A stretch of DNA of 32,000 nucleotides from an uncultured Chloroflexia bacterium (GTDB lineage Bacteria > Chloroflexota > Anaerolineae > Anaerolineales > Anaerolineaceae), in contig OY969938.1 in assembly GCA_963704755.1 (NCBI GenBank), forward strand, positions 2,670,001 through 2,702,000, read 5' to 3'. This document shows positions 20,947-23,146 of the stretch, piece after piece (position 1 is the first letter of the stretch; each line of letters opens with the position of its first letter). The position numbers and the translations under genes are program-made. The notes under the pieces are model-generated. The model worked only from the letters and a program-made list of their open reading frames with translations, was not told the origin of the DNA and made no database searches.

Positions 20947-23146
20947 CTACACCCGGCGCACTTTCTCATCTGTAGGTTGGGTTGCGGGCTCTTTTATAAC
21001 ATTTGCTATTATCCAGGCATTTGCCTTGCGGGCGTTGCCCGTAACCCAACAATAGGAGCCGGCCGCATCGACGCATGCCCGAAGCGATCGGGCCGGTCTC
21101 TCCCTCCCTTCCGTCGGCCAAGCCCGTTCTTTAATGCAAACCGGCAACGTGGCCAATCCTTCCCCCGGATGTTGGGTTTCGCTCAAGCCTCAGTAACCCA
21201 CTCACTGCATATGGCCCGTTCAACCCAGCCTACGCCGGCGCACTTTCTCATCTGTAGGTTGGGTTGCGGGCTCTTTTATAACATTTGCTATTATCCAGGC
21301 ATTTGCCTTGCGGGCGTTGCCCGTAACCCAACAATAGGAGCCGGCCGTATCGACGCATGCCCGAAGCGATCGGGCCGGTCTCTCCCTCCTTTCCGTCGGC
21401 CAAGCCCGTTCTTTAATGCAAACCGGCAACGTGGCCAATCCTTCGCCCGTAAGTTGGGTTTCGCTCAAGCCTCAGTAACCCACTCGCTGCATATGGCCCG
21501 CTCAACCCAACCTACGCCGGCGCACTTTCTCATCTGTAGGTTGGGTTGCGGGCTCTTTTATAACATTTGCTATTATCCAGGCATTTGCCTTGCGGGCGTT
21601 GCCCGTAACCCAACAATAGGAGCCGGCCGTATCGACGCATGCCCGAAGCGATCGGGCCGGTCTCTCCCTCCCTTCCGTCGGCCAAGCCCGCTCTTTAACG
21701 CAAACCGGCAACGTGGCCAATCCTTCCCCCGGATGTTGGGTTTCGCTCAAGCCTCAGTAACCCACTCGCTGCATATGGCCCGCTCAACCCAACCTACGCC
21801 GGCGCACTTTCTCATCTGTAGGTTGGGTTGCGGGCTCTTTTATAACATTTGCTATTATCCAGGCATTTGCCTTGCGGGCGTTGCCCGTAACCCAACAATA
21901 GGAGCCGGCCGCACCGGCGCATGCCCGAAGCGATCGGGCCGGTCTCTCCCTCCCTTCCGTCGGCCAAGCCCGTTCTTCAACGCAAACCGGCAACGTGGCC
22001 AATCCTTCCCCCGTACGTTGGGTTTCGCTCAAGCCTCAGTAACCCACTCGCTGCATATGGCCCGCTCAACCCAACCTACGCCGGCGCACTTTCTCGTCTG
22101 TAGGTTGGGTTGCGGGCTTTTTTATAACATTTGCTATTATCCAGGCATTTGCCTTGCGGGCGTTGCCCGTAACCCAACAATAGGAGCCGGCCGCATCGAC
22201 GCATGCCCGAAGCGATCGGGCCGGTCTCTCCCTCCTTTCCGTCGGCCAAGCCCGCTCTTTAACGCAAACCGGCAACGTGGCCAATCCTTCCCCCGTACGT
22301 TGGGTTTCGCTCAAGCCTCAGTAACCCACTCGCTGCATATGGCCCGCTCAACCCAACCTACGCCGGCGCACTTTCTCATCTGTAGGTTAGGTTGCGGGCT
22401 TTTTTATAACATTTGCTATTATCCAGGCATTTGCCTTGCGGGCGTTGCCCGTAACCCAACAATAGGAGCCGGCCGCATGGACGCATGCCCGAAGCGATCG
22501 GGCCGGTCTCTCCCTCCTTTCCGTCGGCCAAGCCCGCTCTTTAACGCAAACCGGCAACGTGGCCAATCCTTCGCCCGGATGTTGGGTTTCGCTCAAGCCT
22601 CAGTAACCCACTCGCTGCATATGGCCCGCTCAACCCAACCTACGCCAGCGCACTTTCTCATCTGTAGGTTGGGTTGCGGGCTCTTTTATAACATTTGCTA
22701 TTATCCAGGCATTTGCCTTGCGGGTGTTGCCCGTAACCCAACAATAGGAGCCGGCCGCACCGACGTATGCCCGAAGCGATCGGGCCGGTCTCTCCCTCCT
22801 TTCCGTCGGCCAAGCCCGTTCTTTAATGCAAACCGGCAACGTGGCCAATCCTTCCCCCGGATGTTGGGTTTCGCTCAAGCCTCAGTAACCCACTCGCTGC
22901 ATATGGCCCGTTCAACCCAACCTACGCCGGCGCACTTTCTCATCTGTAGGTTGGGTTGCGGGCTCTTTTATAACATTTGCTATTATCCAGGCATTTGCCT
23001 TGCGGGCGTTGCCCGTAACCCAACAATAGGAGCCGGCCGCACCGACGTATGCCCGAAGCGATCGGGCCGGTCTCTCCCTTCCGTCGGACAAGCCCGCTCT
23101 TTAACGCAAACCGGCAACGTGGCCAATCCTTCGCCCGGATGTTGGG
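20947..23146. repeat. Tandem array, 7.8 copies of a 282-bp unit rich in GTTGGGTT / AACCCAAC boxes
   Basis: TGTAGGTTGG starts at 20971, 21253, 21535, 21817, 22099, 22381, 22663 and 22945, exactly 282 bp apart. Units 1 and 2 differ at 8 positions. The last unit has a 4-nt deletion and ends at about 23146. The array carries the 782-aa + ORF (20977..23325) and one 69-82-aa minus ORF in each of units 1-7. Confidence 0.97.

Follow-up and report, generated by a model that had tools for sequence, protein, structure and literature searches.

The tandem array at positions 20953-23146 of the window, by which we mean the whole 32-kb stretch of Anaerolineae (Chloroflexota) DNA that was analysed, is in our assessment very probably an ordered tandem cluster of one REPIN, that is, of one "HH dimer" of GTAG-tagged repetitive extragenic palindromes (REPs). 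Each unit is built from two inverted GTAG-headed palindromes, the array occupies an extragenic, same-strand position downstream of an operon, and arrays of this kind recur in other genomes. Judged by design and sequence, the unit is homologous to a widespread, selfish REP family that brackets genes for REP-associated tyrosine transposases (RAYTs), which are Y1 HUH enzymes. An initial annotation, made from the sequence of the window, had offered three possible roles: a multi-copy structured RNA or sponge, an amplified REP-like single-stranded DNA hairpin element of the kind found in bacterial interspersed mosaic elements (BIMEs), or a protein-loading array. Our analysis reassigns this candidate structured RNA array to REP/REPIN biology.

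Tandem Repeats Finder described the array as 7.8 copies of a 282-bp period with 97% matches, 0% indels and a score of 4080. It is laid out as follows.

Tandem array: 20953-23146, + strand, seven full 282-bp units and one partial unit.
Unit starts: 20953, 21235, 21517, 21799, 22081, 22363, 22645 and 22927.

A separate repeat search returned eight copies at an exact spacing of 282 bp, with TGTAGG boxes from 20971 to 22945. The spacing, the identity of about 97% and the eight differences between units 1 and 2 all agree with the initial annotation. Units 1-7 contain no indels, and any two of them differ at 6-11 positions. Twenty columns vary among these seven units, grouped at unit positions 96-104, 138, 157-165 and 193-200, exactly where substitution clusters had been described. 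In 16 of the 20 the changes are transitions only (17 if column 218, with a transition and a transversion, is counted), and variants are shared in mosaic fashion between non-adjacent units. Unit 8 carries a 4-bp deletion that shifts the frame, and the array stops within its third box (box C, below) at 23146. Repetition extends over the entire 282-bp period and leaves no unique spacers, so the array is not a CRISPR array, as had been stated.

Near-identical 282-bp repeats are hard to assemble, and the length of the array might reflect a repeat that was collapsed or expanded in the long-read assembly. A short-read contig from the same organism (L018) breaks 46 nt past the stop codon of the upstream aldolase gene, inside the left copy of a flanking hairpin element (E73, described below), and is therefore uninformative on array length. 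Exact protein look-ups gave only short Logan contigs from a single run (ERR11571143), and these too break at the flanking repeat. However, the differences between units are mosaic and mostly transitions, without homopolymer indels, which looks like evolved variation rather than consensus noise, and arrays of the same design are present in independent assemblies. We regard an assembly artefact as very improbable.

All full units follow one plan, consisting of an 18-nt linker, GTAG-GTTGGGTT...AACCCAAC-AT, a 120-nt spacer, and AT-GTTGGGTT...AACCCAAC-CTAC. The two inverted modules, M+ and M-, each combine a GTAG head with an imperfect palindrome, and their heads point outward. The parts of unit 1 are listed here, with scores from a covariance model (R1) that was built from eight diverged modules.

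Linker: 20953-20970, + strand, 18 nt, CCGGCGCACTTTCTCATC; eight copies in the array, one opening each unit.
Module M+: 20971-21054, + strand, GTAG-headed long-loop REP, 80 bits with R1.
Box A: 20971-20989, TGTAGGTTGGGTTGCGGGC, followed by a 47-nt loop.
Box B: 21037-21050, GCCCGTAACCCAAC, followed by AAT.
Central spacer: 21055-21165, + strand, about 120 nt between the inverted REPs, containing GGAGCCGGCC...GGCCGGTCTCC.
Module M-: 21166-21234, - strand, inverted GTAG-headed REP; M- modules score 37-50 bits with R1.
Box C: 21171-21184, GATGTTGGGTTTCGCTC, written with its lead-in as (GAT)GTTGGGTTTCGCTC.
Box D: 21214-21234, GCCCGTTCAACCCAGCCTACG.

The orientations of the boxes alternate (A+, B-, C+, D-), A and C being direct repeats of each other and B and D their inverses. 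The GTAG/CTAC tag is restricted to the outer boxes and is missing from the inner ones: in every full unit TGTAGG stands before box A and CCTACG after box D, while unit 8 ends before box D. The A:B stem of M+ has 14 bp, including one G:T pair. In the general plan of the unit box D is written GCCCGCTCAACCCAACCTACG and the loop from C to D measures about 29 nt, and M- reads on the - strand as CGTAGGCTGGGTTGAACGGGC... in unit 1 and as CGTAGGTTGGGTTGAGCGGGC... in units 2-7. Each unit contains two exact GTTGGGTT boxes, two exact AACCCAAC boxes and one AACCCAC, and not three of each type as had been reported; in the whole window GTTGGGTT occurs 31 times, against 1.3 expected. The linker is flanking DNA that was co-amplified with the element, and with one further base on each side it makes up the N20 between CTAC and GTAG at the unit junctions. 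Most of the variable columns are located in the central spacer, which has no second copy outside the array units, either in the window or in any fetched locus, and which yielded no RAYT remnant in a tblastn search.

The boxes recall a further class of folded DNA sites, the attC sites of integrons, whose core is GTTRRRY and whose inverse core is RYYYAAC. GTTGGGT fits the former and ACCCAAC the latter, and the inverted boxes could fold in single-stranded DNA, so that the array might be read as an integron-type cluster of attC sites without an integrase (CALIN). We rejected this reading on geometry and context, as nothing beyond the 7-nt cores agrees with the R''-L''...L'-R' arrangement of attC sites. 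The palindromes extend outward as well as inward from the boxes with continuous pairing, leaving neither an unpaired central spacer nor the geometry of extrahelical bases, and the supposed cassettes would all be identical. Moreover, the window contains no integrase gene, and the boxes carry a GTAG tag and bracket RAYT genes elsewhere. The probability that we assign to an attC cluster is close to nil.

Two of the hairpins that had been proposed for the unit were found throughout. Hairpin (i), CAACCCAACCTAC-N20-GTAGGTTGGGTTG, spans every unit junction, and hairpin (ii), GTTGGGTTGCGGGC-N47-GCCCGTAACCCAAC, with its single G:T pair, is present in all eight units and, with N49, also at 4998-5074. 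In a third proposal, hairpin (iii), in which one stem encloses another, the arms overlap, so that the two stems cannot both form in full. The minimum free energy (MFE) structures of the unit, computed as DNA and as RNA, pair the two unit ends with each other (GTAGGTTGGGTTGCGGGC with GCCCG(c/t)TCAACCCAACCTAC), which is a feature of REPINs. The corresponding z-scores were -2.2 for DNA, -2.75 for RNA of the + strand and -1.8 for RNA of the - strand. Hairpins are therefore present, but "highly structured", as the unit had been called, overstates values of -1.8 to -2.75.

REP modules occur at two loci of the window, 15 of them in the array and four at 4804-5178. The latter form two dispersed elements.

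Dispersed copy 1: 4804-4985, + strand, diverged four-box element with boxes GTGGGT/ACCCAC.
Dispersed copy 2: 4993-5178, + strand, compact four-box element, found by repeat search and with R1.
Layout of copy 2: box A at 4993-5011, N49, box B at 5061-5074, N22, box C GTTGGGTTACGGGC at 5097-5110, and ACCCAACCTAC at 5167-5177.

These copies lie back to back in intergenic DNA after a ferrochelatase gene, with central spacers of only 13-22 nt. With R1 the left module of copy 1 scored 77.8 bits (+ strand) and the right one 73.3 bits (- strand); for copy 2 the values were 86.4 bits (+ strand) and 77.1 bits (- strand). The GTAG-tag pattern is kept in copy 2 and degenerate in copy 1. Both REP loci lie between annotated genes, as expected of extragenic REPs. 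The array follows the stop codon of an aldolase gene and precedes an ilv promoter, with the genes on the same strand, confirming the position between a catabolic operon and the ilv-leu promoter that had been given.

Alignment of the eight diverged modules showed that the 14-bp stem is 87% paired and that three pairs are altered on both sides, and the covariation score exceeded that of 499 out of 500 shuffles. Within the array, none of the 20 variable columns is compensated. The G:T pair of hairpin (ii) had been taken to mark the + strand as the functional one, but the diverged stems (n = 8) contain three G:T and five A:C pairs, and the argument fails for the family as a whole.

R1 matched the copies in the window and three copies in L019 only. 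L019 is the closest relative on record, with an aldolase 86% identical to that of the window, and its copies fall in a 908-bp intergenic region (983-1890) located 3' of the orthologous aldolase gene, with compensated stems such as GTTGGGAT/ATCCCAAC. This region also shows the four-box plan in its compact form, which recurs in more than 150 viral and metagenomic loci (below). Three or more types of GTAG-headed palindrome (TGTAGGGGCAGG..., GTAGGTTGGGAT... and GTAGGGTGGTGTGG...) crowd the region. The intergenic site after the aldolase gene seems to be a hotspot for GTAG-headed elements in this lineage, and the occupation of this homologous site by related elements is the one hint of mobility. Broader searches for close copies were negative. 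The exact 18-mer of box A gave 16 matches in 185,579 GTDB genomes, none extending past about 20 nt and all due to chance; the pattern A-N40-60-B had no match in JGI metagenomes; and the 282-bp unit had none in plasmid and phage collections, where only the flanking E73 element was matched.

The heads of the modules belong to a much wider REP family with the head sequences GTAGGTTGGG/CCCAACCTAC, in which the 12-nt head GTAGGTTGGGTT is identical in contigs of 33% to 70% GC. Scanning IMG/VR viral contigs for GTAGGTTGGGTT-N3-30-AACCCAACMT identified 39 loci (L027-L065), the hits being compact GTAG-headed hairpins with loops of 4-28 nt. Many of these loci present head>, <tail, tail>, <head across 80-95 nt, which is the four-box order of the array unit. 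The open reading frames (ORFs) adjoining the REPs in these 39 contigs are phage structural genes and not RAYTs, the REPs being located in intergenic DNA of phages and prophages. We also observed GTAGGTTGGGTT heads within phage or prophage contigs, for example beside Mu-like head genes.

In metagenomes, at least 120 loci (L066-L185) contain the junction AACCCAACCTAC-N10-40-GTAGGTTGGGTT, and tblastn detected RAYT-like ORFs in 12 of them (E values of 1e-36 to 1e-46). The query, an Escherichia coli YafM/RAYT sequence, served as a probe only. Pfam assigned Y1_Tnp (PF01797) to eight of the ten RAYT-like ORFs submitted to it, and each of these RAYT genes is bracketed by outward-facing GTAGGTTGGGTT heads. 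One metagenomic RAYT had at least 7,992 homologs, many of them named "REP-associated tyrosine transposase" in cyanobacteria, and two homologs listed came from Anaerolineae metagenome-assembled genomes (MAGs). Between cyanobacteria, Deltaproteobacteria and Anaerolineae, the associated RAYTs share about 55-60% identity.

The locus L189, from the Anaerolineae MAG GCA_045888195.1, has a RAYT gene at 2658-3200 between two REPs. The left REP reads GTAGGTTGGGTGACGG-[about 48 nt]-CCGTCACCCAAC, and the right one, in reverse complement, GTAGGTTGGGTTGAGGCGGGCC...CGAAACCCAAC with a loop of about 35 nt. Aligned with the M- head of the array, the right REP gave 22 identities and one gap in 23 columns (95.7%). 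Because the REPs on either side of the L189 RAYT have long loops, as in the array, the array unit looks, from sequence comparison, like a RAYT element minus its gene, that is, a REPIN. Of the roles suggested in the initial annotation, the amplified REP/BIME-like hairpin element is the one that fits, given the inverted GTAG-headed pair, a family that brackets RAYTs and the recurrence of arrays. The unit also proved to be part of a known mobile element in kind, through the REP/RAYT family, an outcome that had been named as one that would overturn the earlier interpretation. The transposase search that had been advised was negative for the window and positive for the family, in the 12 metagenomic loci and L189.

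Tandem Repeats Finder was also run on 159 loci with this REP family and revealed further head-containing arrays. The array in L136 has 6.9 copies of 100 bp at 98% identity, with a linker that also measures 18 nt; L153 has 5.9 copies of 170 bp; and L092 has 4.2 copies of 222 bp next to a RAYT. Others were found in L084, L101, L113, L126 and L159. Like the array in the window, these metagenomic arrays combine GTAGGTTGGGTT heads, the four-box order, a linker and near-identical copies. Their periods are 92-222 bp and their lengths up to about 1 kb, and the unit and the array of the window are the longest and the largest, respectively, among arrays in the surveyed loci. In L092 (2-1842), the array lies directly upstream of the RAYT gene (1082-1582), and a 109-bp x 2 repeat follows the gene.

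These data also bear on the possibility that the array represents a series of genes for structured small RNAs or sponges, in which each unit is an independent functional RNA. The units contain stable hairpins, including hairpin (ii) with its G:T pair, and the + strand RNA had the lowest of the fold z-scores. There is no strong terminator between the upstream operon and the array, so that read-through transcription is likely, and Di Nocera et al. (PMC3733652) consider transcription probable for many REPs, with a possible role as RNA elements. However, Rfam 15 gave no match at the gathering score in the whole window, and at E <= 5 over 20800-21900 it gave one chance match, in the E73 element, and none in the units. 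Searches for tRNA and tmRNA were negative. None of the units contains a sigma-70-like promoter, and terminator-like matches do not exceed shuffle expectation. A promoter in each unit (TGnTATTAT, or TATAAC in the loop) had been considered and was dropped, as no -35 element fits and the promoter scan was negative. Both orientations of the module are found, in the single unit as well as in the family at large, the paired stems show no strand preference, the variable columns of the array are uncompensated, and the REP family is tied to a DNA transposase. An array of RNA genes is accordingly improbable, and the roles of structured RNA, sponge and protein-loading array found no support in Rfam, promoters, z-scores or module orientation.

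Several observations weigh against the REPIN cluster. No RAYT or RAYT remnant was detected within the 32-kb window, and the source contig (4,871,623 bp) is absent among the best 120 of the at least 7,992 homologs of the metagenomic RAYT. The modules are atypical as REPs, with lengths of about 82 and 76 nt and with loops that span 47 and about 36 nt, the usual size being 20-40 bp with a short loop, and the spacer measures 120 nt. Loops of comparable length do occur in the REPs that flank the RAYT of the Anaerolineae MAG described above. R1 found no copies in the loci of five relatives with aldolases of 77-79% identity, and the REP sub-family of the array is therefore narrow. Finally, the REPIN model leaves unexplained an excess of variable sites at codon position 3 of an ORF that runs through the array.

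Open reading frame: 20977-23325, + strand, 782 codons; the corresponding database product P0001 has 704 aa; judged incidental.

This frame raises the possibility that the array is a real gene, perhaps born from an amplified REPIN, for a protein of 704-782 aa with 94-residue repeats. It is the only one of six frames without stops (282 bp being 94 codons), and P0001 is on record for the source genome. Codon position 3 of this frame holds 13 of the 20 variable columns, and 12 changes are synonymous and 8 non-synonymous, compared with about 30% synonymous expected (P = 0.0037 and 0.0058; P = 0.003 with base composition matched); CpG context is no explanation. In contrast, the codon-usage log-likelihood was -0.25 bits per codon, against +0.07 to +0.51 in 21 genes of the window, and GC hardly varies between codon positions 1, 2 and 3 (0.57/0.59/0.58, compared with 0.61/0.42/0.70 in genes). 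The frame begins at a TGA 9 nt before the array and continues through an E73 repeat, no Shine-Dalgarno sequence precedes any ATG, and the frame is shifted by the 4-bp deletion in unit 8.

The predicted product, which includes the peptide LGCGLFYNICYYPGICLAGVARNPTIGAGR..., would be extremely basic, with much Cys, Pro and Arg, a single aspartate per unit and no glutamate at all. It matched only itself among 5.8 billion clusters and 1.84 billion representatives, it matched no Pfam or PHROG family, and the mean predicted local distance difference test score (pLDDT) of AlphaFold2 for two units was 40. Homologous modules elsewhere are non-coding or lie in other frames, and arrays of the same design can repeat with a period not divisible by 3, 100 bp being one example. 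Only the excess at codon position 3 fits a repeat-protein gene, and it conflicts with all other coding tests. We consider a gene of this kind unlikely. The label "non-genic" in the initial annotation calls for a qualification, with one frame open over 782 codons. If the amplified REPIN array had been captured as a translated gene, its frame would be under purifying selection, as the excess of synonymous third-position differences among units suggests, and the product would be a de novo protein from selfish palindromic DNA; the chance of this is slight. The codon-phase bias provides a lead for Ribo-seq or proteomics.

For the REPIN cluster, we propose the following history. As a non-autonomous transposon moving in single-stranded form, the element would have reached this site and 4804-5178 through a RAYT that is, or was formerly, encoded elsewhere in the 4.87-Mb genome. 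Unit and linker may then have been multiplied in place by unequal homologous recombination or replication slippage; alternatively, multiplication may have proceeded by RAYT-driven, rolling-circle-like unit addition, as proposed for BIMEs. Later partial homogenisation of the copies by gene conversion would explain the mosaic variants and the 2-4% divergence. Nothing points to a dedicated cellular function, and whatever the array does to the cell is probably a by-product. It may, for instance, place hairpins at the 3' end of the catabolic transcript or, as a buffer of 2.3 kb, insulate the ilv-leu promoter from read-through.

The sugar-catabolic operon upstream of the array encodes a GntR-regulated set of ABC-transporter, amidohydrolase, dehydrogenase, FGGY-kinase and class-I aldolase proteins, and the aldolase gene ends at 20837, 5' of the array. 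Homologs of this aldolase place the host in Anaerolineae (Chloroflexota), the nearest non-self protein being 86% identical. Downstream, the operon ilvD-ilvB-ilvN-ilvC-leuA begins with ilvD at 23647. It is preceded by a sigma-70-type promoter at 23353-23381 (TTGACA-17-TACTAT), by a leader ORF of 36 codons at 23453-23563 (MINFLLSLAILAIVLLAVLIISRREPAWARVDRERK) with Ile, Leu or Val at 14 of the first 21 codons, and by a strong intrinsic terminator at 23596-23624 with a 12-bp stem and T8, located 22 nt ahead of ilvD. In this Chloroflexota genome, a leader-peptide attenuator appears to control the ilv-leu operon.

The array is bracketed by two copies of E73, a repeat family different from the GTAG elements.

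E73, left copy: 20850-20922, + strand, 73-nt hairpin element CCCCTCTCCC-agaaac-GGGAGAGGGG.
E73, right copy: 23169-23241, + strand, 99%-identical direct repeat of the left copy.

E73 (…CCCTCACCCCAACCCCTCTCCC-agaaac-GGGAGAGGGGC…) shares 82-93% similarity, across stretches of 40-65 nt, with intergenic multi-copy repeats carried by replicons of Azospirillum, Xanthomonas, Cupriavidus, Enterobacter and Pseudanabaena, and this type of hairpin repeat appears to cross phyla.

Other repeats were observed in the window. A 650-bp microsatellite at 10921-11568 repeats the octamer CCGAACCC, with the variants CTGAACCC and CCGACCCA, about 80 times; it has a strong GC skew (-0.44), its three - strand frames are all open, and it lies a short distance upstream of the GntR-family regulator gene of the catabolic operon (11719-12450). 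Five intergenic hairpins (1028-1080, 1954-2006, 3515-3569, 9195-9251 and 17182-17238) have arms of 25-27 bp and loops of 3 nt, three being perfect and two 96% complementary. Those at 1953, 9196 and 17183 represent a single AT-rich palindrome of 55 nt with GAA in its loop, and the differences between these copies are mostly compensated on both arms. They constitute a second palindromic repeat family, unrelated to the GTAG elements.

The analysis documents a GTAG-REP family with the head GTAGGTTGGGTT, whose REPs in Anaerolineae carry unusually long loops, and its largest ordered REPIN cluster in our survey (2.2 kb) lies immediately before an ilv-leu operon that appears to be under attenuator control. 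Arrays of this kind offer natural test beds for the RAYT-driven amplification proposed for BIMEs, and they are likely hotspots of copy-number variation and assembly breaks.

Compared with known systems, ordered REPIN clusters have been described in Pseudomonas fluorescens SBW25 (Bertels and Rainey 2011, PMC3116915). The SBW25 clusters and the array are alike in being extragenic and in belonging to families tied to RAYT genes. However, the SBW25 clusters reach up to 4 REPINs and about 700 bp, whereas the array has 7.8 units over 2.2 kb, and its REPs, unlike those of SBW25, have loops of 36-47 nt and a spacer of 120 nt. The hosts also differ (Anaerolineae and a gammaproteobacterium), and no resident RAYT was seen in the window.

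The array, with its 7.8 head-to-tail copies of 18-nt linker plus HH dimer at 97% identity, likewise resembles the BIME-2 arrays of the REPtron/TnpA(REP) system of E. coli, for which TnpA(REP)-based models of unit addition and amplification have been put forward (Ton-Hoang et al. 2012, PMC3333891). Both show alternating REPs, conserved linkers and tandem reiteration, and both families combine a GTAG head with an association with Y1 transposases. In contrast, BIME-2 units are shorter than about 100 bp, their REPs measure about 35 nt and their sequence family is a different one. Binding of gyrase, IHF or Pol I is known for E. coli BIME-2.

Miniature inverted-repeat transposable elements (MITEs) share with the unit its short, non-coding, non-autonomous character and inverted repeats of about 20 bp (TGTAGGTTGGGTTGCGGGC/GCCCGCTCAACCCAACCTACG). 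Unlike in MITEs, no target-site duplication is visible, and the ends are RAYT-type GTAG hairpins rather than the ends of DDE-transposase elements.

The superfamily of GTAG-tagged REPs, which includes the GTAG-23 blocks of Thermomicrobium roseum (Di Nocera et al. 2013, PMC3733652), has in common with the element a stem-loop with an unpaired GTAG tag at one of its ends, HH dimers whose tags lie outermost, dimers in tandem together with flanking DNA, and frequent G:T pairs. Its stems are of 6-13 bp with mostly short loops (PMC3733652), compared with a 14-bp stem and a 47-nt loop here. The family with the GTTGGGTT stem was not found in the text and text supplements of PMC3733652, figures aside, and a literature search for the box sequences returned nothing relevant. 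Both the amplification of BIMEs and ordered REPIN clusters in tandem are on record (PMC3116915, PMC3333891, PMC3733652), and the earlier remark that such arrays are uncommon in bacteria was too strong. The novelty is modest and concerns the phylum of the host, the long loops of the REPs, the dimensions of both unit and array, and how widely the GTAGGTTGGGTT/RAYT family is distributed.

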